Below are positions 1,925-34,930 of a stretch of DNA of 64,000 bases, one piece after another. The notes below the pieces were generated by a model that was given only the letters and a program-made list of their open reading frames with translations, had not been told where the DNA came from and did no database searches. The stretch comes from an uncultured Candidatus Saccharibacteria bacterium. Its GTDB lineage: Bacteria > Patescibacteriota > Saccharimonadia > Saccharimonadales > Saccharimonadaceae. Position numbers and translations under genes: made by a program. The stretch covers positions 45,518 to 109,517 of the forward strand of contig CAYLKD010000002.1 of the NCBI GenBank assembly GCA_964384345.1, written 5' to 3'. Position 1 is the stretch's first letter. Each line of letters begins with the position of its first letter.

Positions 1925-1930
1925 CGAAAA

Positions 1931-1958
1931 ACGCCAGACCATTCGGTCTGGCGTTTTT
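1931..1958 (+). terminator. Intrinsic terminator after tRNA-Gln
   Basis: ACGCCAGACC, loop ATTC, GGTCTGGCGT (10-bp stem), then T-run 1955-1958. An A-run precedes it, so it may act in both directions. Confidence 0.8.
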
Positions 1959-2148
1959 CGTCTCATGCAGTCGGAATTAGAGCATATGCTAGGCTTTCGT
2001 CTTATTTGTAAATTCGGCTTATTCACATGAACATAAAAATTGTCTGGTAAAAATCCGACACGATCAAAATGAATACTTGATCAACTTTTAAGGAATGTAT
2101 TTCAGTATCAATGATTCTTAAAATAGGGGAACTATTAGTAAGAACATA

Positions 2149-2179
2149 TTAACAGAGAGCCATTAAAGCTCTCTGTTAA
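2149..2179. repeat. Perfect 12-bp inverted repeat (possible terminator of the minus-strand stress gene, or a protein-binding site)
   Basis: TTAACAGAGAGC (2149-2160), 7-nt loop, GCTCTCTGTTAA (2168-2179). There is no clear U-tract on either side. Confidence 0.45.
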
Positions 2180-2197
2180 TATGACGAAGTTTAATTG

Positions 2198-2416
2198 TTA
2201 GTTGTCATTGTCGTGGCTGTGCTCACCACCTTCAACTTTTGCTTCGTGCGGCTGAGCCTCTGCACCCATTTTTCCTAGCTCTGACATATCTTGTTCATCA
2301 CTACTGTGCTCTCCGCCTTCACGCTTAGCTTCAGTTGACTGAGCCTGACCGCCCATACTAGCAATTTCTTTTTGTTCGTCTTCGTCCATACTGGCAAATC
2401 CTTGATCATCTGACAT
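2198..2416 (-). CDS. Small acidic stress-protein-like protein with two KGG/GGxHS-type repeats
   Basis: An internal duplication reads MGGQAQSTEAKREGGEHS / MGAEAQPHEAKVEGGEHS. An SD (AAAGGAGAG) lies upstream. It resembles the YciG/general-stress KGG repeat family. Confidence 0.55.
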   Translation of the reverse strand: MSDDQGFASMDEDEQKEIASMGGQAQSTEAKREGGEHSSDEQDMSELGKMGAEAQPHEAKVEGGEHSHDNDN

Positions 2417-2514
2417 AGTAGCTCTCCTTTTATTTGGTTGCTATTGCATTATGTATTGTAGGTCCTAAGGCAATACCTAACCATGATGCATGTCCGGATG
2501 AGCTGTTAATTTTC

Positions 2515-3160
2515 TTACACGACATCATTGTCAAGGATCGTACGTAATCCATGAATGTTAATGATGGCCAAACTGTTTGTCGTGCGTTTGATATATTTCT
2601 TCGCAATAAATTCGAGTATTACTCGATTGACCGTTTCTCTCGTCAAGCTTATTGAGTCTGCGATATCTTGGTACGTTGTAGGAACAACTATAGTGACTAT
2701 GCCATCTCGCTCCTTGCCGTAATACTTTGCTAAAAATAGTAATCGGTAAGCGATGCGCTCGTGTGCAGATTTTAATTCAAGATTTATGATCCGCTGATTT
2801 GAATAGTCGAACGCGTCAAGTGCCATAGATAACGCCTGACGTATGAGCGCAGGATCGTTTTCGATGTGCTTTTGAAAGTGGTGCTTAGATATAATACTCA
2901 CTTCAATGGGAGTAATGGATTCAAAAAAAAAGTTGTTGGGCGCCACTATGGAATGCCCATAAAAATGGAAAAATACTGCCCGGCCCGGACAGTACAACTA
3001 TTTGAGTTTCACCGACTTTATTAATGGTATACGCCTTAATATATCCTGATTTCAAAAAGTAAACCCCACGTGGTTCTTCATCGGGGCTCAACAAGATTTC
3101 ACCCTTATGAAAACGGTGTGTCTTCAAATCTTCAAATAGCGCCTTGAGTGGATTATACAT
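2515..3160 (-). pseudogene. Crp/Fnr-family transcriptional regulator, frameshifted at a T9 homopolymer
   Basis: ORF 2921..3160 encodes the cNMP-binding beta-roll N-terminus. ORF 2515..2997 encodes the C-helix plus the HTH (SLTRETVNRVI). The two frames join if the T run at 2923-2931 (minus strand) is 8 rather than 9 nt, giving ...AQQLFFESITPIEV... Confidence 0.8.
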
Positions 3161-3280
3161 AAGTGTGATTTACTATTATCGAGCTATATATTCTTTTTTA
3201 GTATACGGGAGAGATAACTTGATGAGAGATAAATGTTTAGTACTATATTACTAGACTACATAAAAGAGGAGATGATTGAT

Positions 3281-3712
3281 ATGGCGAGTATTAACCCTTA
3301 TATAAATTTCAACGGGAACGCTGAAGAAGCATTCAACTTTTACAAATCGGTGTTTGGTGGTGAGTTCGAAACCGTAGTTCGTTTTAAAGATCTTGAGAGT
3401 TCAGAGTTTACCGTGCCAGAAAACGAAGCCAATAAGATTATGAGAATAGTGCTTCCAATCGGTGCAAATGTATTGATCGCCAACGATGTACCAGAAGCCA
3501 TGGGTCCAGTAAGCGAGCGTGAGAATCGATCAAAAATCGCGATCAACACAGAAAGTCGTGCTGAAGCCGACCAGATCTTTACTAGACTTAGCGAGAATGG
3601 GGAAATTGAAATGCCAATGAGTAGTAGCCCATGGGCTACATACTTCGGTATGTTTCGAGATAAGTACGGCATCGAGTGGACTATAGAGTGTAACAATAGC
3701 GCTAACAACTAG
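3281..3712 (+). CDS. VOC/glyoxalase-family protein (PhnB-like)
   Basis: The pattern INPYINFNGNAEEAFNFYKSVFGG ... FRDKYGIEW is typical of PhnB/3-demethylubiquinone methyltransferase-like VOC proteins. SD AAGAGGAG lies 9 nt upstream of ATG 3281. The ORF stays open upstream to 3233. Confidence 0.75.
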   Translation: MASINPYINFNGNAEEAFNFYKSVFGGEFETVVRFKDLESSEFTVPENEANKIMRIVLPIGANVLIANDVPEAMGPVSERENRSKIAINTESRAEADQIFTRLSENGEIEMPMSSSPWATYFGMFRDKYGIEWTIECNNSANN

Positions 3713-3786
3713 CAGTGTATAGTGCTTTTGTTTGTCTGAGTAATACGCTATAGTATTGATAAATCATTTTAACAAAAGGCTATTTA

Positions 3787-4506
3787 ATGGCGACTCCACG
3801 GCTTCCAGTTCCCGGTCAAGACGATGGCAAATGGGGTGAGATTCTCAATGACTTTCTTTCACAGTCACATAACACCGATGGCAGCTTAAAACAGGGTGCA
3901 GTTTCAACGGCTGGTGCAGCCCAAGATGCAAATGTCGTCCATACCTCTGGTGCCGAGACAATAGCAGGAACAAAAACATTTCAAGCTCCGGTCATCGTCC
4001 CTTCTCCAACACAGAATACGCACGCTGCAACAAAGGCGTACGTTGATGCTGCAGCAAACGCAGGTGCGTCAGATGCTACTACGACTAGCAAAGGCCTCAT
4101 ACAACTTGCCGGCGATCTTGGCGGTACGGCTGCCGTACCCACTGTGCCTGGTTTAGCAGGTAAGGCAAATGTTTCACATACCCATACTGCATCGCAAATC
4201 TCAGATGCATCTATTATTGGTCGAGATGTTTTGATAGCAAGTAATGCTGCAGCAGCTCGCGCTGTAATTGGTGCTGGAACTGGAAGTAGTAATCTGACTC
4301 TTGGAACAACGAGCACGACTGCAAAAGCAGGAGACTACACACCATCAAAGGTTGATGTCGGTCTAGCGAATGTTGATAATACAAGTGATACAGATAAGCC
4401 AATTTCAACTGCAATGCAAAGCGCGCTCGATACTAAAGTCAATGCTGCTGATCTCTCAGCCGTAGCAACTTCAGGGAGTTATACCGATCTTACAAATAAC
4501 CTGTGA
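3787..4506 (+). CDS. Phage tail-fibre-like repeat protein (N-terminal part of a fibre/spike)
   Basis: The N-terminus LPVPGQDDGKWGEILNDFL, the motifs KGLIQLAGDLGGTAAVPTVPGL and GLANVDNTSDTDKPIS, and the C-terminal SGSYTDLTNN are motifs I associate with phage tail fibres. The composition is Ala/Thr/Gly-rich. Confidence 0.7.
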   Translation: MATPRLPVPGQDDGKWGEILNDFLSQSHNTDGSLKQGAVSTAGAAQDANVVHTSGAETIAGTKTFQAPVIVPSPTQNTHAATKAYVDAAANAGASDATTTSKGLIQLAGDLGGTAAVPTVPGLAGKANVSHTHTASQISDASIIGRDVLIASNAAAARAVIGAGTGSSNLTLGTTSTTAKAGDYTPSKVDVGLANVDNTSDTDKPISTAMQSALDTKVNAADLSAVATSGSYTDLTNNL

Positions 4507-6227
4507 TTCCTGCAAGTGCAACTGATGCTACGTCATCCACAAAAGGTGTCATACAACTCGCTGGCGATCTTGGCGGTACAGCTGCCTTGCCTACTGTGCC
4601 TGGTTTGGCAGGTAAAGAGCCTACCGTAACGGCTGGTACTACTGCTCAGTATTACCGCGGAGACAAGACGTGGCAGACATTTAGCAAAGGAGCGCTCGGG
4701 TTAGCAAATGTCGATAACACCAGTGACGCGAATAAGCCAATCTCTACAGCTACGCAAACGGCGCTTGATACAAAGCTTACCGCCTCGGCCACCGACGCCA
4801 CTATTGCTGCGCTGGTTCAAAACTATGCGAGCTCGACCGGATCAACGCTTTCCAAAACGTATGCGCGGGGCGTCAGCATTAAAGAGTATGGAGCAACCAC
4901 AGGCTCTGCGGATAATGCTGCTGCTATACAGTCGGCTATTGATGCTGTCGCAACAGACGGCGGCGGCGTCATATTCATACCACGCGGGACATGGATAACC
5001 GGTCCAATCGTTATGAAAACTGGTGTGACTGTAGCAGGTGAAGGTTACAATAGCATTCTTAAGCTTAAGAATGGCTCAAACGCTCACATGTTCACGTTGG
5101 CAACGGCCAGTGAAAAATGGACAGGTTTTCGCGATGTGCGTCTAGATGGAAATAAGGCAAATCAAACCTCTGGTGATATCATTCACTACGATCAAACTGG
5201 CTATACATCATCTGACACTACGACACTACTCGTCGCAGATCCAAATCATTATTTGCATCGTGTTGTTTTGATCAACGCAAAGGGGCATGGGTTTTATCAC
5301 TACTCGGACTCAAATGGTGCATGTCAGCTGATTGATGTAGTATCGTACGGCAATGATAACACGGCATTTTATATAGCATCACCAGATAACCAACTCGATC
5401 ACTGTATTGGAGCTGGCTCTGGACAGCAAGGCTTCAATATTTCGGGCAATCAAAATCGATTACTTGGTTGTAAAGCATTCATCAATGGGCAAATCACCGC
5501 TTCAAACGGAGTTGGATTTTTGGTAAGTGGTGGCCGTAACGACTTGATCCACTGTGAGGCGCAGGATAATCGAAACCATGGATTTAGCTTGGTTGCCTTG
5601 GCGGACGCAATTGTTATCGTAAAGTCTGAGCGAAATGGACTTGGAGCTGGCGGTAACCCTACTGGAGGGGTTGGAGATGGTATGTATGCTCAAGCAGTCA
5701 CTAATTCTCATATCGTACTCAATGCAACTGACCGGCTAGTATCAAGTACCGCAATGCAGCGATGGGGTTATAACCTCGGAGCTGGCAATGACGGAAATAT
5801 AGTACAAATTACCGGAGGAGCAAATTCAACCGGTACAGCGGGAATTGGTTCGTGGGGCCCTAATAGCATTGTTACCGAAGTTTTCCAGGGTAAAATGGTT
5901 GCACGACCGATTGCTCCGTCTGCAGCAACATCACAATCCGGTACAACGTATACAGCGGTAATGGCTGATGCGGGTACCGTCGTTGAAATGAATAATGCCG
6001 CAGCTTCGACATTTACTATCCCGCCAAATTCTTCGGTCGCTTTCCCAATCGGTACGGTAATTGAAGTCGACCAAATGGGTGCTGGACAAGTGACGCTAGC
6101 AGCTGGTGCTGGCGTGACGCTGAGATCACGCGGCGGTGCTTATAAGCTCACTGCACAATATTCGGTAGCATCTTTACGTAAACGTGCGGATGACGAATGG
6201 GTTGTTGTAGGAGATTTGACACCGTGA
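4503..6227 (+). CDS. Pectate-lyase-superfamily (right-handed beta-helix) tailspike/depolymerase-like protein
   Basis: The GTG start overlaps the upstream TGA (GTGA). The N-terminus repeats the fibre motifs. SIKEYGATTGSADNAAAIQSAIDAV..GGGVIFIPRGTW is the Pectate_lyase_3-type entry into a beta-helix. Length is 574 aa. Confidence 0.75.
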   Translation: MIPASATDATSSTKGVIQLAGDLGGTAALPTVPGLAGKEPTVTAGTTAQYYRGDKTWQTFSKGALGLANVDNTSDANKPISTATQTALDTKLTASATDATIAALVQNYASSTGSTLSKTYARGVSIKEYGATTGSADNAAAIQSAIDAVATDGGGVIFIPRGTWITGPIVMKTGVTVAGEGYNSILKLKNGSNAHMFTLATASEKWTGFRDVRLDGNKANQTSGDIIHYDQTGYTSSDTTTLLVADPNHYLHRVVLINAKGHGFYHYSDSNGACQLIDVVSYGNDNTAFYIASPDNQLDHCIGAGSGQQGFNISGNQNRLLGCKAFINGQITASNGVGFLVSGGRNDLIHCEAQDNRNHGFSLVALADAIVIVKSERNGLGAGGNPTGGVGDGMYAQAVTNSHIVLNATDRLVSSTAMQRWGYNLGAGNDGNIVQITGGANSTGTAGIGSWGPNSIVTEVFQGKMVARPIAPSAATSQSGTTYTAVMADAGTVVEMNNAAASTFTIPPNSSVAFPIGTVIEVDQMGAGQVTLAAGAGVTLRSRGGAYKLTAQYSVASLRKRADDEWVVVGDLTP

Positions 6228-6817
6228 GAGGTGGCGTCATAGCATCGTCACAACGACGAGGAGCTATAATCACTAACCCTCCTATTTCAGATACGTTTTC
6301 AACGACATTCTCAACAACGAACTGGGCAGGAAATTCGTATGGGGTCTCTACTGTTAGTGGGCGTCTGCGGATTCCATGTACATCCAGCTATCCCCAAGCA
6401 GAAACCGCTGCGGTATTTGATATAAACTTGTACGCACTGTGGATTGAATTACCAACTGTACCGGTTGCGGGTAATGGTACGACGCAGACTCATTTCGCGA
6501 TTGAAAATAGTGGGCGTTCTAGTTTAGCCTCATTTAATTTATCTGGTGCGCCACTATCAATAGCTATGCAACTTACCGGTTCCTCCACGACGTTCTTAAC
6601 GTATAATGCAACTAATCATCGTTGGTTACGTTTTCGGTTACTGAGTGGTAATTTACTGTGGGAAGTGTCACCTGACAAAATTACATGGACACAGATTCGC
6701 ACGATTGCAGCTCCCGCGTGGGCCACTGCTGGTTCACTGAGGGTTCTGGTTGACAGTAGTTATTATGGAACAGAGACTGCACCTGGCAATGCAGAATTTG
6801 ATAATTTTAACGTTTGA
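6224..6817 (+). CDS. Hypothetical protein, jelly-roll/carbohydrate-binding-like
   Basis: In-frame GTG 6224 overlaps the stop of the previous gene (GTGA again). The ORF is open from 6197. The pattern HRWLRFRLLSGNLLWEVSPDKITWTQI resembles LamG/CBM-type domains. Confidence 0.55.
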   Translation: MRGGVIASSQRRGAIITNPPISDTFSTTFSTTNWAGNSYGVSTVSGRLRIPCTSSYPQAETAAVFDINLYALWIELPTVPVAGNGTTQTHFAIENSGRSSLASFNLSGAPLSIAMQLTGSSTTFLTYNATNHRWLRFRLLSGNLLWEVSPDKITWTQIRTIAAPAWATAGSLRVLVDSSYYGTETAPGNAEFDNFNV

Positions 6818-6855
6818 TCCATTAATCTGCATACCAAACAGGTATACTTAGTAGA

Positions 6856-8133
6856 ATGATACAATCAATCACCGAAGAGCTTAGTTTAGAAAAAATTGTT
6901 GGCGGCGGGCAAGCGCTCGGTGTGTTGGCCGATGGGCGCAAAGCGTTCGTGTGGGGAGGTCTTCCTGGTGAAACGGTTGTGGCAACCTTCAACAAGCAAA
7001 AAAAACGTTTCGTAGATGGCGTCGTGGATCGTGTGGTGCAGCCGAGTCCTGCACGTATCCAAGCTAAGGACCCAGACAGTTATCTTAGTACGTCGCCGTG
7101 GCAAATCATGGATTTTGCAAGTGAGCAACGCTATAAGGCAGAGTTAGTACGCGAAGCATATGCGCTGCACAATATCGAATTGCCAGATACGATTGATATT
7201 TATACAGACAACAATGAGTATGGTTATCGCAACAAAATCGAATGTAGCTTTATGTGGGACGATAAAACGCAGCAGCTTGATCTAGCATTTTTTAAACGTG
7301 GCTCACACGAGAAAATTGCCATTTCAGGAACAGCAATAGCACATCCGAGCCTCAATTCCTTAGCTGTCCAAATTCGTGACGTATTTCGACAGAAGCCCAC
7401 GACTATGCAGTCGTTAGTATCGTTACTCATTCGCTGTGATCAAATGGGAAACTGCGTCTTCCAACTCTTTACAACAAATAAAGATGCATTTGCGCTGACG
7501 AGTGATGAATTCGAGGCGCTAACATCGTCTGGTGGTGAACTCATCTATGTCGATCCCGTGACCCGGGCAACGAAAGTATTGGTTACCTATGGCACGACAA
7601 CGCTAACGGATACAATACTTGGTACTTCGTTTCAGTACAAATGTGACAGTTTTTTCCAAGGAAATGTTCCACTCTATGAGCAGGCTCTGACAGATATGAA
7701 ACAATGGGTTGGTGAAGGTCCGGTAGTTGATATGTATAGCGGCGTCGGTACAATTGGCTTTACGGTCGGCGGCGACAATCTTACTCTTATAGAATCCAAC
7801 AAATCAGCAATTGATGAAATGAAGCGTAATCGTTATGAGCTTGGAAAAAAAGCAACAATAATCGAAGCAACCTCGGAAGCATCTTTAGAATATATCGTGC
7901 CTGAGGCAACTATTATAGTTGATCCACCACGTGCAGGGCTACATGAAGCTGTCGTTGATCAGCTGCTAGCAAAAAAGCCCTCACGAATAATCTATCTAAG
8001 TTGCAATCCCGTCACGCAAGCTCGTGATATAAAATACCTCAGTGCAAGCTATAAAATTATATATCAAAGAGGTTATAACTTTTTCCCACGCACACCGCAC
8101 ATCGAGTATCTCGTCGTCTTGGACCTGCAGTAG
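6856..8133 (+). CDS. RNA (uracil-5)-methyltransferase, TrmA/RumA (RlmD) family
   Basis: There is a TRAM-like N-terminus. The SAM-MTase motifs are VDMYSGVGTIG, VDPPRAGL and YLSCNP, with a C-terminal FPRTPHIEYLVVL. Confidence 0.85.
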   Translation: MIQSITEELSLEKIVGGGQALGVLADGRKAFVWGGLPGETVVATFNKQKKRFVDGVVDRVVQPSPARIQAKDPDSYLSTSPWQIMDFASEQRYKAELVREAYALHNIELPDTIDIYTDNNEYGYRNKIECSFMWDDKTQQLDLAFFKRGSHEKIAISGTAIAHPSLNSLAVQIRDVFRQKPTTMQSLVSLLIRCDQMGNCVFQLFTTNKDAFALTSDEFEALTSSGGELIYVDPVTRATKVLVTYGTTTLTDTILGTSFQYKCDSFFQGNVPLYEQALTDMKQWVGEGPVVDMYSGVGTIGFTVGGDNLTLIESNKSAIDEMKRNRYELGKKATIIEATSEASLEYIVPEATIIVDPPRAGLHEAVVDQLLAKKPSRIIYLSCNPVTQARDIKYLSASYKIIYQRGYNFFPRTPHIEYLVVLDLQ

Positions 8134-8246
8134 CAACGCGTAGTATCATTTACTACTAAATAACCATTTGTATGTAATGCAACATATTGTATAATTGGAA
8201 ATGGTGAGGGGCTGGCTCTCATCATCACACCTCTCTTGGAGGAACG

Positions 8247-8846
8247 ATGAAATACCGCTTGAAAGAAATCAGGCGCAAGACCGTGCGTCCGGTCTTGGCG
8301 ATGATCCTCGCGCTCATGCTCGGCTGCAGCATCACCACGCCGTCCATCGCGAGCGCCTCGGCGCCTAGTACCCAGCAGACCACCGTGTCTGTTTCGGCAT
8401 CGAATGCCGCTGCACCAACCGTTCAGGCGTCTGTCACAAGCACCATCCGTGCCTGCTGGCGGAGCTACCAGTTCTTCGGCGGTCGCGACCACCAGTCCGT
8501 CTCCTACAACCTGTACCTCTACGAGGACCACGGGACAGGACTGGATGTCTACCGCGCTGAAGCGACGGTGATCTCGCACAACTTCGACTCCGGTGCGCCC
8601 TACGAGGTGCTACGGAACCAGATCAACGTGCTCAACCTCGGGTACGGTGATCGGGTACTGGAGACATCGGGCGCTCCGATCAACTACGGCGAGCCGCGCG
8701 TCGATGCGATGACGGGTCACTGGCCCAGTGTCGTCGCGTACCCGAGCGCGCTCAGGGTCCGGCTGCACGGCTCCACGAGATGGAGCGACGGCAAGGTCGT
8801 CAACTGGCAGACCGGCCTCCTGGTGTGGGGTCAGACCAACTGCTGA
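8247..8846 (+). CDS. Hypothetical secreted lipoprotein on a high-GC island
   Basis: A signal peptide with the lipobox-like LMLGC is present, and SD GGAGGA lies upstream. Codon usage is strongly G/C-ending. I recognised no family. Confidence 0.65.
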   Translation: MKYRLKEIRRKTVRPVLAMILALMLGCSITTPSIASASAPSTQQTTVSVSASNAAAPTVQASVTSTIRACWRSYQFFGGRDHQSVSYNLYLYEDHGTGLDVYRAEATVISHNFDSGAPYEVLRNQINVLNLGYGDRVLETSGAPINYGEPRVDAMTGHWPSVVAYPSALRVRLHGSTRWSDGKVVNWQTGLLVWGQTNC

Positions 8847-8889
8847 CCCACCCACGCCACTACCCCTACTAGAGGAAGGAGTGCTCATG

Positions 8890-8923
8890 AAGCACCCCTC
8901 AAGTAGGGGTGCTTTCATGTTTT
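8890..8923 (+). terminator. Intrinsic terminator after the island gene
   Basis: AAGCACCCCT (8890-8899), loop CAAGT, AGGGGTGCTT (8905-8914), followed by a T-rich tail. Confidence 0.6.
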
Positions 8924-8968
8924 GCTGAAATTATAGATACATCACTATTCATGACATACTAGTAAAAG

Positions 8969-10015
8969 ATGAAAACACTACAAATGTATGGCTGGACACA
9001 TCACGATCAGACTAGTTGGGACAGCTTAGGCCTACACAGCTTGAAGCCAGCACGAGTGATAGCTGATTTCGGTACTTCGCTCACAATTGCGTATCCTGAG
9101 ACTGCAACTGCTGAGCTCACCGGTAAATTAGCGCATCATACAAACAGGGAGGTATCACCAAAAGTAGGCGATTGGGTTGCGGCGCGTATCCTCGATGACA
9201 GTAGTGCAGTGATCGAATCTGTCGTGTGTCGGCGAAATGCTATTGCGCGAAAAGTTGTAGGTAAACGAACATCGAAGCAGATCATCGCAGCCAATGTCGA
9301 TGTTGCATTTGTGCTACTTGCGCTCGATAACGATTTTAGTATTGAACGATTGCAGCGCTTTTTGTTTCAGCTTGTGAGGGAGAACATAAGCCCAGTGATT
9401 GTTCTGAATAAAGCCGATAAAACGAATGACGTACCGTCGTATCTGGAGCAACTACGTACGATAGAGCATCCCATCGTCGTGACGACTGCAGTCGAAGGGG
9501 TCGGAATAGACAAGGTACTCGAATTCATCGCGCCTGGTCGGACGGCGATGCTACTTGGCTCGTCAGGTGTGGGCAAATCGACACTGACCAATCGGCTGCT
9601 TCAGCGCGACGAGCAAGCAACTCAAGCCGTCAGAACGTCAGATGCTACAGGAAAGCATACGACTGTGCACCGCGAGTTGTTTGTACTGCCAAACGGTGGG
9701 CTCCTTATCGATAACCCAGGAGTACGAGAATTTGCTCTCTGGGGAATAGAAGACGACGTCGATCTACTGTACGCCGATATTGTAGCGCTCAGTCGTCTCT
9801 GTAGATTTGATGATTGTCGGCATGAAAAAGAATCTGGATGCGCTATAAAAAAAGCGTTGCAAAACGGTCTGCTTGATAAAAACCACTATGCAAATTATTG
9901 CAAAATGCGCAGCGAGTTAGTTGGTTTGAATAAGAGGACTGTCGTCGCACGCGCAAAGGCGAATCAGCGGCCACCAAGAAATTCGAATTGGAACGACGAG
10001 GAATGGTACGGCTAG
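8969..10015 (+). CDS. rsgA: Ribosome small-subunit-dependent GTPase A
   Basis: The motifs are NKAD (G4), GSSGVGKSTL (G1) and DNPGVREF, plus the C-terminal zinc knuckle CRFDDCRHEKESGC. Confidence 0.9.
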   Translation: MKTLQMYGWTHHDQTSWDSLGLHSLKPARVIADFGTSLTIAYPETATAELTGKLAHHTNREVSPKVGDWVAARILDDSSAVIESVVCRRNAIARKVVGKRTSKQIIAANVDVAFVLLALDNDFSIERLQRFLFQLVRENISPVIVLNKADKTNDVPSYLEQLRTIEHPIVVTTAVEGVGIDKVLEFIAPGRTAMLLGSSGVGKSTLTNRLLQRDEQATQAVRTSDATGKHTTVHRELFVLPNGGLLIDNPGVREFALWGIEDDVDLLYADIVALSRLCRFDDCRHEKESGCAIKKALQNGLLDKNHYANYCKMRSELVGLNKRTVVARAKANQRPPRNSNWNDEEWYG

Positions 10016-10158
10016 AGAGGGAGCTTAGGCTTTTTGTCTTTTTTTGGTTTTTTAACGTTCTTTTTTTGATCAGTGCCTTTAGACATAATGTATTCCTTGT
10101 TTAATGAATGTAGTATAGCAGTAAAACAAAACTGATACAGCGAGTTTTATATGAATAT

Positions 10159-10193
10159 AAAAATAGACAGGAGTTTCTTACGCTACTGTCTAT
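10159..10193 (-). terminator. Intrinsic terminator of the small basic ORF
   Basis: On the minus strand ATAGACAG, a 15-nt loop and CTGTCTAT are followed by TTTTT (plus-strand A-run 10159-10163). Confidence 0.6.
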
Positions 10194-10214
10194 CTATTCG
10201 CATATAAAAAAATA

Positions 10215-10301
10215 CTACGCGTTGCGCTGGTTATTGCCGCCGAGTTTTTTCTTGAGTGCGCGTTTTCGAGAAGCGCTGTGTCGATTCTTTTGTTTGGCCA
10301 T
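10215..10301 (-). CDS. Unannotated 28-aa highly basic peptide (MAKQKNRHSASRKRALKKKLGGNNQRNA)
   Basis: It is below the 60-aa ORF-track cutoff. SD GGAAGGA lies 5 nt upstream of the ATG, and it has its own hairpin plus T-run terminator. The composition is ribosomal-protein-like. Confidence 0.45.
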   Translation of the reverse strand: MAKQKNRHSASRKRALKKKLGGNNQRNA

Positions 10302-10363
10302 ATGTTCCTTCCGTATGTATTATGCCTATGGTAGCACGAAACTCCTCAGATTTACAGGTTTTG

Positions 10364-10372
10364 TGGTATAAT
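10364..10372 (+). promoter_or_regulatory. Extended -10 promoter element (TGgTATAAT)
   Basis: It is an exact TGnTATAAT about 50 nt upstream of ATG 10425, and that gene has an SD. Confidence 0.5.
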
Positions 10373-10424
10373 CATAAACAGTTAAGTATAGAATACTTAC
10401 GCAATCCAGAAAGAGGAAGTCGCC

Positions 10425-10658
10425 ATGAAGACAAGTACCAAAGCATTTTTTGAATCAGAAATAGGGTTGTCACTTCGTCAGCAACTTCTCGATATGGTAG
10501 CGAATGAGCAATATAGTACCGTTACTATGTACTCTACTCAAGATAAAGACGGACTCACTTTTGTGCAAAAGCACATGAACTATATGGGTCAGTTTGCTGG
10601 TCTTAACCACCAACAATACATCTCAAACTTGAAACTGATGACTAGAAAAAGTAGCTAA
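10425..10658 (+). CDS. Hypothetical small protein (77 aa)
   Basis: SD AAGAGGAAG lies 6 nt upstream and an extended -10 lies further upstream. I recognised no family. Confidence 0.5.
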   Translation: MKTSTKAFFESEIGLSLRQQLLDMVANEQYSTVTMYSTQDKDGLTFVQKHMNYMGQFAGLNHQQYISNLKLMTRKSS

Positions 10659-10723
10659 AGCATTTTTCTCAGTTTGTGAGCCAGATTTTGGGCTTTCACG
10701 CCCACATTGATCACGCTGGCTCT

Positions 10724-11566
10724 TCAGTGCATATTCATTGTTGCAGGATCTGGACCTTGTCGGGTACCATTTTCAAGTTCATTTATAACTTGCATGTCAT
10801 CTGAGTTTAGCTCAAAATCAAACACATCAATATTTTGCTCGATTCGCTCTTTGTGCACTGACTTAGGTATAACGATGAGGTTATTTTGAATATGCCATCT
10901 GATGACCACTTGTGCAGGTGATTTGCCATACTGCTTGGCAATTGAAGCAAGGGATTCTTCTTGTAAGAGGTTGCCTCTACTACCACCTATCGGGCTCCAT
11001 GACTCAACGTGGATATTGTTTGATGCACAAAAATCACGTAACTCTTGCTGTGGTAAGTATGGATGTAGCTCAATTTGATTAACGACTGGTGGAACTGTAG
11101 CGACTGCGAGAAGTTCACGTAGCTCTTTAACGGGGAAGTTGCAAACGCCAATTGAGCGTATTTTGCCTTCTTTTTGAAGTGCTTCAAATACGTTCCAGGT
11201 TTGAATGAATAAGCCTACATCGGGCATGGGCCAATGGATGAGATAGAGATCAATATAATCTACACCTAGCTTTTGTAAACTAGCTTCAAATGCTGAGCGG
11301 ACTTTATCGGCACTGCCTTGGTCGGCATTCCATAATTTTGTAGTAACAAACAGTTCTTCTCGTGGAACAGTGCTTGCAGCAATCGCGCGACCAACGCCGG
11401 CTTCATTTTGGTAAACGGCAGCAGTGTCTAATAGTCGGTAACCTGCATCGATTGCCCACGATACAGCATGCTCGACTTCTTTGTCACTGGCTTGCCAAAC
11501 GCCGAGGCCTAGCTGTGGCATCGTATTGCCGTCATTCAATTTTACGGATGGTAATTCTGTATACAT
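10724..11566 (-). CDS. Aldo/keto reductase (DkgA-like)
   Basis: The motifs LGLGVW, LLDTAAVYQNE, LYLIHWP and IPKS..ERI..N are present. Length is 280 aa. Confidence 0.9.
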   Translation of the reverse strand: MYTELPSVKLNDGNTMPQLGLGVWQASDKEVEHAVSWAIDAGYRLLDTAAVYQNEAGVGRAIAASTVPREELFVTTKLWNADQGSADKVRSAFEASLQKLGVDYIDLYLIHWPMPDVGLFIQTWNVFEALQKEGKIRSIGVCNFPVKELRELLAVATVPPVVNQIELHPYLPQQELRDFCASNNIHVESWSPIGGSRGNLLQEESLASIAKQYGKSPAQVVIRWHIQNNLIVIPKSVHKERIEQNIDVFDFELNSDDMQVINELENGTRQGPDPATMNMH

Positions 11567-11661
11567 GATGATACCTCCTATATCTGTTTCTAGTATACAA
11601 GATGAAGGTAGAGCATGTAAAAAAGTATCCTTTTTGGATCAACTCTTTACTATTTTCTGCG

Positions 11662-11670
11662 TGGTATACT
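11662..11670 (+). promoter_or_regulatory. Extended -10 element (TGgTATACT) of the metK leader
   Basis: It is a TGnTATACT directly upstream of the riboswitch. Confidence 0.5.
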
Positions 11671-11689
11671 TGACTGGTAACAACAATTA

Positions 11690-11852
11690 ATCACGTATTG
11701 AGAGTGCAGCGAGAGAACTAGCTCTATGACCTGCCGGCAACCGATCAAATTCGGTGCCCCTTCTAGCCCTATCTGGGAAAGATAACAAGCTACCTCCTTT
11801 TGTCATCTTTCCTGCGACTTGCGGCCGAGAAAGATACGTAAAAAAGGAGTTT
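11690..11852 (+). promoter_or_regulatory. SAM riboswitch (SAM-I clan, SAM-IV / SAM-I-IV-like core) with a translational expression platform
   Basis: GAGAGUGCAGCG...CUGCCGGCAACC-(CCGA UCAAAU UCGG)-UGCCCC matches the SAM-IV-type core. Anti-SD CUCCUUUU (11794-11801) is complementary to the SD AAAAGGAG (11842-11849). AUCUUUC (11805-11811) can pair with either copy of GAAAGAU (11777-11783 or 11829-11835). The element sits upstream of metK. Confidence 0.65.
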
Positions 11853-11856
11853 TTTT

Positions 11857-12834
11857 ATGGCAATGTATCGTAGCGCAGAAAGCGTGAGTCCGAAGCATCC
11901 AGATAAACTGTGTGATCAAATATCAGATGCGATTTTGGATGCCTATCTCAAAGTTGATCCAGATGCACGGGTCGCGGTTGAGACAGTCGGGGGTCATGGC
12001 AAAGTATTTATCACTGGAGAAGTAACTGCTCGCATGCATATAGCTGTAGCTCCCATCGTCAATCGTCTCGCGGGTGATGTGCAACTCGAAGTTCATTTGG
12101 TGACTCAAAGTCCGGAGATCGCTTCGGGCGTTGATACCGGCGGCGCTGGTGACCAAGGTATTATGGTTGGCTACGCCTGTGATGAAACCGATGAACTCTT
12201 GCCGCTTGAAGTAGTTCTCTCGCGCACGCTCAACCAAGCGTTATATGAACGATGGCCATATGATGGCAAAACACAGATCACTCTCAAAAACGACAAAATC
12301 ACGGCCGTTGTTGCCAGCTTTCAGCATGCTCCACGAGAAGAACTCGAAACGCAGGTATTATCATGGATTAAAAAAGATTCACGAGCAAAAGTAGATTCCT
12401 CTTCATTCGAGTTGCATGCGAATCCGGCCGGGGACTGGAAGCAGGGCGGATTTGACGCGGATGCTGGACTCACCGGACGAAAACTAGTTGTCGACAACTA
12501 TGGTCCACGAATACCTATCGGCGGCGGCTGTTTTAGTGGCAAAGATGCCAGCAAAGTAGACCGATCGGCGGCATACATGGCCCGTAAAATTGCTCGAGAT
12601 TACCTACGGAGCCGAAAAGCACATGAAGTCTATTGTCATTTGGCATATGCAATTGGTTATGATCAACCGCTAGAGGCGTCAGTAACAATCGATGGCAAGC
12701 AAGAGCTCGTGCGAGGGTATGACATAACTCCACGAGGCATCATACAGCATCTTGACCTAAGAACACCGATATATGAAGCAACAGCGCGGTACGGACATTT
12801 TGGACATCCTTCGTTTAACTGGGAAAAAGATTGA
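11857..12834 (+). CDS. metK: S-adenosylmethionine synthetase (short form, 325 aa)
   Basis: The motifs are SPKHPDKLCDQISD, GGAGDQGIMVGYA and GGGCFSGKDASKVDRSAAY. Confidence 0.9.
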   Translation: MAMYRSAESVSPKHPDKLCDQISDAILDAYLKVDPDARVAVETVGGHGKVFITGEVTARMHIAVAPIVNRLAGDVQLEVHLVTQSPEIASGVDTGGAGDQGIMVGYACDETDELLPLEVVLSRTLNQALYERWPYDGKTQITLKNDKITAVVASFQHAPREELETQVLSWIKKDSRAKVDSSSFELHANPAGDWKQGGFDADAGLTGRKLVVDNYGPRIPIGGGCFSGKDASKVDRSAAYMARKIARDYLRSRKAHEVYCHLAYAIGYDQPLEASVTIDGKQELVRGYDITPRGIIQHLDLRTPIYEATARYGHFGHPSFNWEKD

Positions 12835-12850
12835 AATATTTAAATATTTC
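12833..12850. promoter_or_regulatory. Perfect 18-bp palindrome, candidate ArsR-family operator
   Basis: GAAATATTTAAATATTTC lies immediately upstream of TATAAT (12853-12858) of the arsR-family gene. Confidence 0.4.
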
Positions 12851-12864
12851 GATATAATTAGGTT

Positions 12865-13146
12865 ATGGAACATCAAAAAACCACTGAAATTTTCAAGGCG
12901 CTCGGTGACGAGATACGACTTGGGATAGTGCGCAAGCTTGTCAGTGAGAACGATGCTGTTGCTAGCTGTGATATCATTTCTTCGTGCGCGAGCCGGACAA
13001 ACCTATCACAACCGGCAATGAGTCACCATTTCAATAAATTAGTGGCAGCAGGAGTTTTATCTGAGCAAAAATGCGGTACGCAGAAAAAATACCAGCTGGA
13101 AACAGACTATCTGCTTTCACTTGGTATCGATGTTTCAAAACTATAA
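12865..13146 (+). CDS. ArsR/SmtB-family transcriptional regulator
   Basis: The winged HTH reads FKALGDEIRLGIVRKL...LSQPAMSHHFNKLVAAGVL. Length is 93 aa. Confidence 0.85.
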   Translation: MEHQKTTEIFKALGDEIRLGIVRKLVSENDAVASCDIISSCASRTNLSQPAMSHHFNKLVAAGVLSEQKCGTQKKYQLETDYLLSLGIDVSKL

Positions 13147-13169
13147 ATAGTATCAAAATGGGGGAATCA

Positions 13170-13715
13170 ATGTCATACATATTAGTTGTAACTGGAAGTG
13201 CACGTCCAAACAGTGTCAATGAAAAAATGGTACCAGAAGTGGTGTCAGTGCTGGAGAAAAAAGGTGCAGAAGTAAAAGTTGCTGACTTAAAACAAATCAA
13301 TCTACCGTTTTTTGATGCACCGTACGCTCCAACGAGCCCTGACTACACTCCATCAAACGAAGTAGCTAAAGAATGGACGCAGATGGTTGCCGATGCGAAT
13401 GGCGTCGTATTTGTGACTCCAGAATATAATCACACACTCAGTGCAATACAGCTCAATGCAATCGATTGGATCGGCAAAGAATGGGAGCACAAACCTATCG
13501 CACTTGTCGGTTATGGCTGGAGCGGCGCAATCCAAGCTCACGCAGCTGCTCGCGAAGCATTATCAGTCAACCTCAAAGCAAACGTTGGTGATGCGCAAGC
13601 TAATCTTCACTTCATGAAGGACATCAATCCAGATGGTACTGCAATTGATGCTGATGTTGTGCAGCAAAAAATCACTGCATCTGTCGAGGAGCTTTTGCAG
13701 ACAATTGCAAAATAA
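13170..13715 (+). CDS. NAD(P)H-dependent FMN reductase-family oxidoreductase
   Basis: The flavodoxin-like fold motifs ILVVTGSARPNSVN and VFVTPEYNHTLS are present. ATG 13170 is preceded by GGGGGA. The ORF stays open upstream to 13071, overlapping arsR. Confidence 0.8.
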   Translation: MSYILVVTGSARPNSVNEKMVPEVVSVLEKKGAEVKVADLKQINLPFFDAPYAPTSPDYTPSNEVAKEWTQMVADANGVVFVTPEYNHTLSAIQLNAIDWIGKEWEHKPIALVGYGWSGAIQAHAAAREALSVNLKANVGDAQANLHFMKDINPDGTAIDADVVQQKITASVEELLQTIAK

Positions 13716-13734
13716 CATCCTGACACAATAATTA

Positions 13735-13773
13735 TGTGCCACGTTCATCAAAAATGAGTGTGGCACATTTTTT
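13735..13773 (+). terminator. Hairpin plus T6 (terminator of the reductase gene, or an attenuator of the erm-like gene)
   Basis: TGTGCCAC (13735-13742), 17-nt loop, GTGGCACA (13760-13767), then T6 (13768-13773). It abuts ATG 13774. Confidence 0.65.
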
Positions 13774-14511
13774 ATGTATACTACTACTATGGCTAGGTCC
13801 GATCAGTATGCGCAACATTTTCTCCGTTCACCACGGGTTGTTGCTGAGCTTGTTGGCCATAGCAATATACGCAAGAATGATGTGGTGTACGATCTCGGAG
13901 CAGGTAGTGGAGTGATAGCAAGCGTGCTCGCACGGCGTGCCAAGCAAGTCATTGCAGTGGAGATTGAACCAGAAGCAGTAAAAAAACTGCGTTCTAATGT
14001 AGGGTTGGTCGAAAACGTGACCATCATTACGCAAGATATACTCGATATTATACCTGAGACTCGGTACAAAATATTTGCGAATATACCGTTTTCATTAAGC
14101 TCAGACGTTGTGAGACATTTTACTTCAGTCCCATTACAACCCACCAGTATGTATGTAATCGTCCAAAAACAGTTTGCAATGAAATTGACGCCGAGCGATG
14201 CACATTTTAATTCTGAGCTAGGCGCAGAATTATGGCCGTGGTTTAGTGTGCGCATTCGTAGGCCATTAAAGCGAACGGACTTTACTCCACCGCCTGCAGT
14301 TGATACGGTACTTCTCGAAATCAAACCGCTTGAAACGCCGTTGTTGCCATTGCAAGACCAAGAGAAATATAAGAGATTTGTCGCTAAGTGTTTTGCTGAG
14401 CAACTATACTTCGCGAAACAGCCAAAGGCACAAGCTGGAATTGACGCAGCGAGAAAACCCTCAGAAGTACGCGCTGAACAATGGGTACGGCTTTACAGTC
14501 TTAGCCGATAG
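13774..14511 (+). CDS. Erm-like rRNA adenine N6-methyltransferase
   Basis: The motifs are QHFL, DLGAGSGVI and YKIFANIPFSLSSDVV, with an Erm-like C-terminal domain. At 245 aa it is close to ErmC (244 aa) and shorter than KsgA. Confidence 0.7.
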   Translation: MYTTTMARSDQYAQHFLRSPRVVAELVGHSNIRKNDVVYDLGAGSGVIASVLARRAKQVIAVEIEPEAVKKLRSNVGLVENVTIITQDILDIIPETRYKIFANIPFSLSSDVVRHFTSVPLQPTSMYVIVQKQFAMKLTPSDAHFNSELGAELWPWFSVRIRRPLKRTDFTPPPAVDTVLLEIKPLETPLLPLQDQEKYKRFVAKCFAEQLYFAKQPKAQAGIDAARKPSEVRAEQWVRLYSLSR

Positions 14512-34636: not shown

Positions 34637-34930
34637 TTACTTTGCGATCTTGACCCACTCATCACCAAGGAACTTTCCTCGGTAGGCGACAACCTGTGGT
34701 GTGCCAGTGATGAGGCTCACCTCGAGATACTCGAAGCACGGGTGACCACTGAGGTACAGGACCACAGTTCCACTCTTCATGAAGTACATCACTTGTGCAT
34801 CGACGGCGTTGTCATCGACCTTGATGGCGAACGCGTCGTCTGCAGTGGTCGGAGAAAGCAGACGTCTCGTGACGTTTTCCATGTACCTGGCAGCGTCGAT
34901 GATGAAGTTTGGGTGGCTCGGCTCGGTCAT
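34637..34930 (-). CDS. Orphan hypothetical protein (97 aa) with foreign codon usage
   Basis: SD GGAGA lies 6 nt upstream and a near-consensus promoter lies further upstream. My hand count gives GC3 of 68/97, with Phe, Ile and Lys always encoded by TTC, ATC and AAG. I recognised no family. Confidence 0.6.
   Translation of the reverse strand: MTEPSHPNFIIDAARYMENVTRRLLSPTTADDAFAIKVDDNAVDAQVMYFMKSGTVVLYLSGHPCFEYLEVSLITGTPQVVAYRGKFLGDEWVKIAK

Follow-up and report, generated by a model that had tools for sequence, protein, structure and literature searches.

The 64,000-nucleotide (nt) stretch of DNA analysed here, referred to as the window, comprises positions C2:45518-109517 in the draft genome of an uncultured Candidatus Saccharibacteria bacterium (GCA_964384345.1), and coordinates given below are positions in the window unless they carry a contig label (C1, C2 and so on, denoting contigs of this genome). 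Between genes encoding an RlmD/TrmA-family methyltransferase (upstream; PF05958, expect value (E) 2.7e-17) and RsgA (downstream; PF03193, E 1.2e-46), the window contains a compact unit, rich in guanine and cytosine (GC), that is built around a single open reading frame (ORF) of 199 amino acids (aa), which we term lipo199 (8247-8846, + strand). Transcription of this unit would start from a putative promoter, a -10 element of the form TG plus TATAAT (8188-8195, +; TATAAT at 8190-8195), recognized by reading the AT-rich flank 51 nt 5' of the start codon; no match to a -35 element is found upstream of the TATAAT, and the element is thus not listed by a consensus promoter scan. It is followed by a 5' leader (8200-8246, +) of approximately 55% GC (54.9% for 8196-8246), which forms the left edge of a block of foreign composition and ends in the Shine-Dalgarno (SD) sequence GGAGGA (8238-8243), 3 nt before the ATG at 8247. 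Since a 5-mer SD sequence precedes only 74 of 566 ORFs in the genome, as judged from longest-ORF starts, SD-led genes are a minority in this organism. The GC-rich 3' end of the unit (8862-8915, +), delineated by repeat and terminator scans, carries a hairpin resembling an intrinsic terminator (8889-8915), with an 11-bp stem, a CAAGT loop and a T-rich tail (CATGTTTTGC), along with an alternative 14-nt inverted repeat (8862-8875 / 8897-8910); GC content over 8847-8915 is 58%. Overlapping the hairpin is a mini-ORF of 13 codons (8880-8921, +; ATG at 8880, TGA at 8919-8921) with GAAGGAG in front, which is probably fortuitous. The components of this cassette had been noticed in the original prediction, made from the letters of the sequence alone, and the 199-aa ORF with its own SD sequence and hairpin terminator, as well as the TATAAT in the AT-rich flank, are all present as described there.

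The cassette is sharply set off from the rest of the genome, which comprises 963.7 kb in 23 contigs, has a GC content of 45.2%, and has an estimated completeness of 99.99% and contamination of 0.22%. Across 8200-8915, G+C amounts to approximately 62%, and when the genome is divided into 600-nt windows (mean GC 0.452, standard deviation (sd) 0.039), the maximum reached within the island, 0.638, stands about 4.8 sd above the mean. The ORF has a GC content of 62.8%, distributed over the three codon positions (GC1/2/3) as 0.56/0.505/0.82, which is the pattern expected of a genuine gene from a GC-rich genome; genome-wide, GC3 is 0.43 ± 0.08 (830 ORFs of at least 150 aa), and only five of these 830, lipo199 among them, have values of 0.82 or more. 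The limits of the island are abrupt: in 50-nt bins, GC content rises from 24% (8150-8199) to 54% (8200-8249) on the left and drops from 58% (8850-8899) to 34% (8900-8949) on the right, so that the block of foreign composition extends from about 8200 to 8915 and takes in the leader with its SD sequence and the hairpin. This contrast had been proposed from hand counts of 68/100 (8281-8380), 36/100 (7801-7900) and 50/100 (9001-9100), all of which prove exact, and windowed GC and GC3 bear out a strong deviation in both composition and codon usage. The island sequence is single-copy, neither junction sequence recurs elsewhere in the genome, and genome-wide comparison of the junctions reveals no repeats at the island ends.

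The product of lipo199 falls into three parts, comprising a signal sequence that ends in a lipobox, L-M-L-G-C, with Cys at position 27 (residues 1-27), a linker rich in Ser, Thr, Ala and Gln (residues 28-66), and a predicted β-rich domain (residues 67-199) that contains Cys70 and the C-terminal Cys199. No curated family in Pfam, NCBIfam, PHROGs, PADLOC or PDB matches it in profile or sequence searches. A k-mer-seeded search of 5.8 billion protein clusters returned lipo199 alone, and an exhaustive phmmer search of 1.84 billion cluster representatives returned lipo199 and one other protein, P0002 (E 3.9e-5), to which a profile search added a second, P0004; among approximately 15 billion proteins these are its sole relatives. 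Both align with residues 91-196 at 28-29% identity (pairwise E 6e-14) and have the motifs LRxQIxxxNLG and PxNYGxPxV in common with lipo199, and this distant homology, together with the position-specific GC, marks the ORF as coding. No match to lipo199 was obtained by tblastn against phages and plasmids, in 185,579 species genomes, or in IMG/VR, and a scan of metagenome contigs led back only to the contig that bears P0002 and P0004. That contig (45 kb, soil/rhizosphere; ENA ERZ27252479 k141_3059031, the same as JGI Ga0157372_10000381, and present in ENA, JGI and Logan) encodes the two as unannotated secreted paralogs of 158 aa (P0002) and 160 aa (P0004), located 2.4 kb apart in a tandem-like arrangement. 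It also encodes a sigma/anti-sigma pair of the extracytoplasmic function (ECF) type that, in a comparison confined to Saccharimonadales, shares 56%/43% identity with the pairs of one family of that order, a suggestive likeness by which the contig probably comes from another Saccharibacterium of the Saccharimonadales. A signal peptide and a β-rich domain are common to all three proteins; P0002 and P0004 differ from lipo199 in having no lipobox and no low-complexity linker, in their mid-range GC content, and in their gene context. AlphaFold models contain only β strands and are of low confidence, with a predicted local distance difference test (pLDDT) score of 50.6 for the full-length protein modelled with P0002 and 39 for the mature domain with P0002, and a Foldseek search with the better of these low-confidence lipo199 models yielded generic β-sandwiches alone, none of them below E 0.05, so that no fold is assigned. 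lipo199 is an orphan exported protein, almost without known relatives.

The gene had been labelled a lipoprotein on account of the LMLGC signal, and that signal is indeed present. The N-terminus (MKYRLKEIRRKTVRPVLAMILALMLG-C27) combines a basic n-region, an h-region and the Cys, and fits the PROSITE-type lipobox pattern (akin to [LVI][ASTVI][GAS]C); a loose lipobox pattern is matched by only six ORFs in the genome. The positively charged n-region, hydrophobic h-region and L-M-L-G-C27 liken the protein to lipoproteins processed by Lgt and LspA (PROSITE PS51257-type), and a Ser/Thr/Ala-rich linker after the Cys, as in lipo199, is also typical of many actinobacterial lipoproteins. The likeness does not extend to the recipient genome, in which neither Lgt (PF01790) nor LspA (PF01252) is found, or to the homologs P0002 and P0004, whose type-I signal peptides have no Cys. 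Lgt is likewise absent from 61 of 61 Saccharimonadales genomes, while the control searches for Lgt and for LspA were positive in 10 of 14 reference genomes. In a genome without Lgt and LspA the lipobox would not be processable and lipo199 would not be lipid-modified; the label cannot be upheld for this gene, and annotation of lipoproteins from a lipobox is doubtful, and probably wrong, for Saccharimonadales at large. Signal peptidase I (SPase I; TIGR02227, 110 bits) is encoded at C4:74185-74715. Judging from its basic N-terminal region and hydrophobic segment, with a Kyte-Doolittle maximum of 2.53 over 13 residues, lipo199 has the features predicted to direct export by the Sec pathway, and ASA motifs at residues 35-39 are candidate sites of cleavage by SPase I. 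It is more likely, then, that lipo199 is a Sec-exported β-rich protein, either anchored by its signal or cleaved by SPase I. Of the surface-exposed product envisaged earlier, the export signal stands and the lipid anchor does not.

The cassette is located in a variable block of 12.7 kb (1925-14500), delimited by Pfam annotation and comparison with congeners, which extends from o1242 and a tRNA-Gln gene to vit1. The tRNA-Gln gene (1850-1924, +; C2:47367-47441; identified with ARAGORN) is the left border of this species-specific mosaic, and HGT (horizontal gene transfer) hotspots are found next to tRNA genes. The block comprises a crp pseudogene, a glyoxalase gene, a tail-fibre-like module, the rlmD-like gene, the GC-rich cassette, rsgA, and genes for an aldo-keto reductase, MetK, an FMN reductase and a KsgA/Erm-like protein. 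Five genomes of the same genus (G001, G002, G003, G005 and G006) have in common the gene order trmD-o1242-[variable]-vit1-o167-o162-o354, the content of the gap being different in each; between o1242 and vit1, no two of the six congeners examined carry equal gene content. One of these, G006, an independently assembled, single-contig congener of 898 kb and 45.8% GC, has nothing corresponding to the entire region from crp through rsgA; its metK and ksgA/erm-like genes, which here belong to the variable block, lie at other positions. The flanking genes had been regarded as core genes, a description that does not fit their distribution among congeners, from which both are missing. The rlmD-like gene has matches only in other genera (52-55% identity), and for rsgA the 10 nearest genomes contain no match at E ≤ 1e-20; the RsgA proteins most similar to that encoded here (55-63% identical) come from metagenome-assembled genomes (MAGs) labelled Candidatus Saccharibacteria, Saccharimonadales or Microsaccharimonas. 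No relative has rlmD adjacent to rsgA, so that there is no empty site for comparison, and no GC-rich island was found beside rsgA at 27 other Saccharibacteria loci or beside rlmD in three genera. The gene is absent from all 60 relatives compared, six congeners included, and a search of the complete congener G006 likewise gave no match, a distribution that answers the earlier call for a check of sister genomes.

A tail-fibre-like gene 3.7 kb upstream of the cassette matches phages of Microbacterium, Gordonia, Tsukamurella and Rhodococcus (8 of 9 records are from actinophages). A prophage or an integrative and conjugative element as the context of lipo199 was considered and rejected, there being no mobility genes nearby and the 56%-GC block at C5:65.7-73.8 kb being separate. 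Encoded in the latter, a block of approximately 8 kb with 56-62% GC that occupies C5:65710-73775 (to the contig end) and C20:1-1150, are an M23 peptidase/lytic protein of 619 aa, two large ATPase-like orphans (494 and 526 aa) and a polytopic membrane protein. The block resembles a module for conjugation or type IV secretion; nothing in G006 corresponds to it, and its best full-length plasmid match, a weak one, is to a Ruania plasmid (28.5% identity).

The original prediction implied that the island was unique in its genome. This is not the case: approximately 31 segments, some 22 kb in total, reach at least 57-58% GC, and the genome has at least 14 convincing GC3-rich ORFs, of which all those tested lack a family (no Pfam match). 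An ORF of 428 aa with a GC3 of 0.91 is also an orphan. Hydrophobic segments at the N-terminus are found in 14 of 27 GC-rich ORFs (52%), compared with 29% among native ORFs (Fisher p = 0.018). G006 has 15 GC-rich islands of its own, encoding mostly orphans with a signal peptide or membrane segments, and 23 GC-rich ORFs of the present genome have no match there. At least seven GC-rich islands nevertheless occupy the same slots between orthologs in the two genomes, namely those at C1:147.8-148.6 kb, C1:163.7-165.2 kb, C6:37.8-38.4 kb, C6:15.8-16.5 kb, C1:87.5-91.8 kb, C10:7.9-10.2 kb and C8:13-16.1 kb of the present genome. Six of the shared slots have a callable ORF, and in all of these (6/6) the two genomes carry their longest GC3-rich ORF in the same orientation; no protein similarity is detectable within any shared-slot pair. 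All-against-all BLASTP of 37 GC-rich ORFs from the two genomes gave no pairs apart from that of lipo199 with P0002, and with this mutual unrelatedness a paralogous native family was rejected. Cryptic homology between slot-sharing cassettes was also rejected, with Z below 3 in Smith-Waterman comparisons against shuffled sequences and tblastx matches that looked compositional. Such shared slots may be integration hotspots in which retention depends on orientation, or they may hold resident genes that have become hyper-divergent. The slot sharing was observed for other islands; no relative has the flanks of the lipo199 island. Elsewhere in the window, a second ORF of raised GC3 (34637-34930, -; 97 aa, GC3 0.69, GC 54%) has no PHROG match. 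In G006, a GC-rich secreted protein of 590 aa (G006:847015-848787, +) has at its C-terminus a hydrophobic segment and then RRRDGRG, an arrangement that resembles a Gram-positive wall- or membrane-anchoring signal without a clear LPXTG.

As to the source of such genes, the codons of lipo199 had been likened to those of Actinobacteria. We compared the choice between C- and G-ending codons in eight families, a measure independent of GC level, with that in seven reference records only. For the pooled GC-rich genes, the Leifsonia and Rathayibacter references gave the best log-likelihoods (-744 and -747), followed by Rhodococcus (-765), with Proteobacteria and Deinococcus references at -781 to -833; lipo199 alone gave -58 to -61 with Actinomycetota, against -65 to -66. 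The likening thus holds in that the C/G-ending choice fits Microbacteriaceae references best, by a small margin in the case of lipo199 alone. That genes do reach this genome from such organisms is exemplified outside the window by a BldC-family regulator gene (C1:169067-169309, -; 59% GC, GC3 0.71), the product of which scores 93.7 bits with NF033787 (cut-off 77) and is, by hand count of the alignment, approximately 70% identical to Streptomyces BldC (PDB 6AMA) over 57 aligned residues. Only 2 of 61 Saccharimonadales genomes have this regulator above the cut-off, and all nine of its plasmid matches are from Actinomycetota. These sequence comparisons clearly identify it as an import of actinobacterial type, and actinobacterial gene flow into this Saccharibacterium is real. 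Uptake of DNA is plausible as well, given that ComEC is encoded in this genome, and HGT and genomic islands have been described in Patescibacteria (PMC12455944) and in Saccharibacteria (PMC7427843).

On these grounds we favour, with somewhat better than even confidence, the explanation that lipo199 belongs to a real, single-copy cassette acquired horizontally from a high-GC gene pool and located in a plasticity hotspot, where it encodes an orphan exported product. The transferred unit would comprise the leader with its SD sequence, the 199-aa ORF and the GC-rich hairpin terminator, with the composition of a genome of approximately 62-65% GC; it would have settled behind a resident AT-rich promoter, within the 12.7-kb species-specific mosaic downstream of tRNA-Gln. 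The high-GC pool would most likely be one with Actinomycetota-like codon choice, and the DNA could have arrived directly or via exchange of cassettes among Saccharibacteria. As part of the same explanation, the cassette would be one of a class of GC-rich orphan cassettes in recombination hotspots, and its lipobox a relic or a coincidence. The protein would be exported via Sec without lipid modification, and then either remain anchored at its N-terminus by the uncleaved signal or be freed by SPase I, for instance after ASA at 35-39, so that a β-rich domain of approximately 130 residues would be displayed at the cell surface on a flexible Ser/Thr/Ala linker. Several observations weigh against this account. 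No homolog of lipo199 occurs in any high-GC taxon among the 1.84 billion representatives, 5.8 billion clusters, 185,579 species genomes, phages, plasmids and IMG/VR; the only two relatives are distant and lie on a contig of 48% GC that is probably from Saccharimonadales, with GC3 of 0.40-0.47 in both genes, and the family may be native to Saccharibacteria. The codon test of lipo199 alone is weak, spanning about 5-8 log units with the native profile at -61.7. No flanking repeat longer than 10-16 nt is of note, and Pfam scans of the neighbourhood reveal no integrase, transposase or other mobility gene that would mark an insertion; the enclosing 12.7-kb block does start at tRNA-Gln. Finally, the conservation of slot and strand among the sister cassettes fits long-term residence as well as it fits repeated import.

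The original prediction had gone further, regarding as the simplest reading a transfer of one gene from a high-GC donor, which could be the organism's own actinobacterial host, with the product acting at the host interface. Foreign composition and a self-contained one-gene cassette agree with single-gene transfer from a high-GC donor, no such donor having been found. A recent single event in which the host itself donated one lipoprotein gene, for display at the host interface, would accord with the GC3 of 0.82 and the CTC/GTC-rich codon choice nearest to Microbacteriaceae references, with the combination of lipobox, SD sequence and GC-rich terminator typical of Lgt-bearing, SD-using bacteria, with the bona fide BldC gene and the actinophage-like tail-fibre genes 1.4 kb upstream, and with the presence of ComEC. 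We nonetheless consider it unlikely. No actinobacterial homolog exists at any identity, despite the dense sampling of Actinomycetota, in searches of proteins, genomes, phages and plasmids, and with no donor found, transfer from the organism's own host is unproven; the homology search with taxonomy called for earlier gave as sole relatives the two mid-GC, probably Saccharibacterial proteins, the very kind of outcome that had been named as speaking against a high-GC donor. Maturation as a lipoprotein is impossible in a recipient without Lgt and LspA. A one-off event leaves the recurrence at conserved slots unexplained, and is hardly the simplest reading for a cassette that is one of many, several of them in such slots. 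Overall, the composition, the cassette structure, the absence from relatives and the export signal are supported from that earlier interpretation, and the host as donor, the lipoprotein, the core flanks and the single event are not.

An opposite view, to which we give a similarly low probability, holds that lipo199 is a native, long-resident member of a set of hypervariable small genes specific to Saccharibacteria, in which GC-rich codons are kept by selection or by a local bias of mutation or repair and give a false appearance of import. The seven or more GC-rich slots shared with G006, with equal strands (6/6 callable) and proteins changed beyond recognition, are in keeping with this, as are the orphan status of every GC-rich ORF tested and the probable residence of lipo199's sole relatives in another Saccharimonadales genome. 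Yet lipo199 itself has no positional counterpart at the 27 rsgA loci or beside rlmD in the three genera, and is located in a species-specific mosaic; P0002 and P0004 are not GC-rich, so that high GC is no trait of the family; no mechanism is known that would keep GC3 at 0.8-0.9 in individual genes when the genome as a whole has 45% GC; and HGT hotspots also yield conserved slots with unrelated content. That the island is an artefact of assembly or binning, in which some 0.7 kb from a co-occurring high-GC organism was joined into a Saccharibacteria contig, is barely credible. A 23-contig draft, probably a MAG, might invite the suspicion, but both flanks continue as Saccharibacterial sequence in a 113-kb contig, the edges match those of a complete unit of promoter, SD sequence, ORF and terminator lying in an intergenic gap, no junction repeats are available to mediate a misjoin, estimated contamination is only 0.22%, and similar islands occupy shared slots in the independently assembled single contig of G006.

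A broader reading concerns the genus, and we offer it tentatively, as a possibility that is rather less likely than not to be correct. The genus may maintain fixed slots for promoter-SD-ORF-terminator cassettes of actinobacterial-like composition, enriched in exported proteins, with the protein in each replaced or diverged between species. These would constitute a surface repertoire of fast turnover, drawn from high-GC hosts or tuned to them, and would determine host range or attachment; on this view the lipobox would be a fossil of the donor, and lipo199 a freshly placed member. To our knowledge, how Saccharibacteria recognize and exploit their actinobacterial hosts is largely not understood, and genes for exported proteins that vary between close species are natural candidates for a part in recognition. 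The present case supplies a clean example of an exported-protein cassette of foreign composition, along with evidence at the level of the genus that such cassettes occupy conserved slots with unrelated contents. A slot system, if real, would provide a testable model for the determination of host range in episymbiotic bacteria, as well as a puzzle for amelioration theory.

Among known systems, the cassette may be compared with two more. Compositionally atypical islets and ORFans at integration hotspots are reportedly the subject of the amelioration framework of Lawrence and Ochman, and the cassette resembles them in its sharp deviation of GC and GC3, its absence from relatives, its orphan content, and its location in a region that starts at a tRNA gene and varies from each congener to the next. 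It differs from them in being a single gene of approximately 0.7 kb without integrase, transposase, flanking repeats or detectable donor lineage, and in that, from one species to another, its sister cassettes remain in the same slot and orientation although the proteins they encode are unrelated. The second comparison is with the phage "morons", which Hendrix and colleagues are said to have recognized as units with a promoter, ORF and terminator of their own, deviant in composition and lodged between genes. The cassette is unlike these in lying outside any prophage, where the adjacent tail-fibre-like genes stand alone, and in having an ORF without PHROG or phage match; it is like them in constituting a self-contained unit of foreign composition between two genes, and the products of morons, too, are often exported or membrane-bound.

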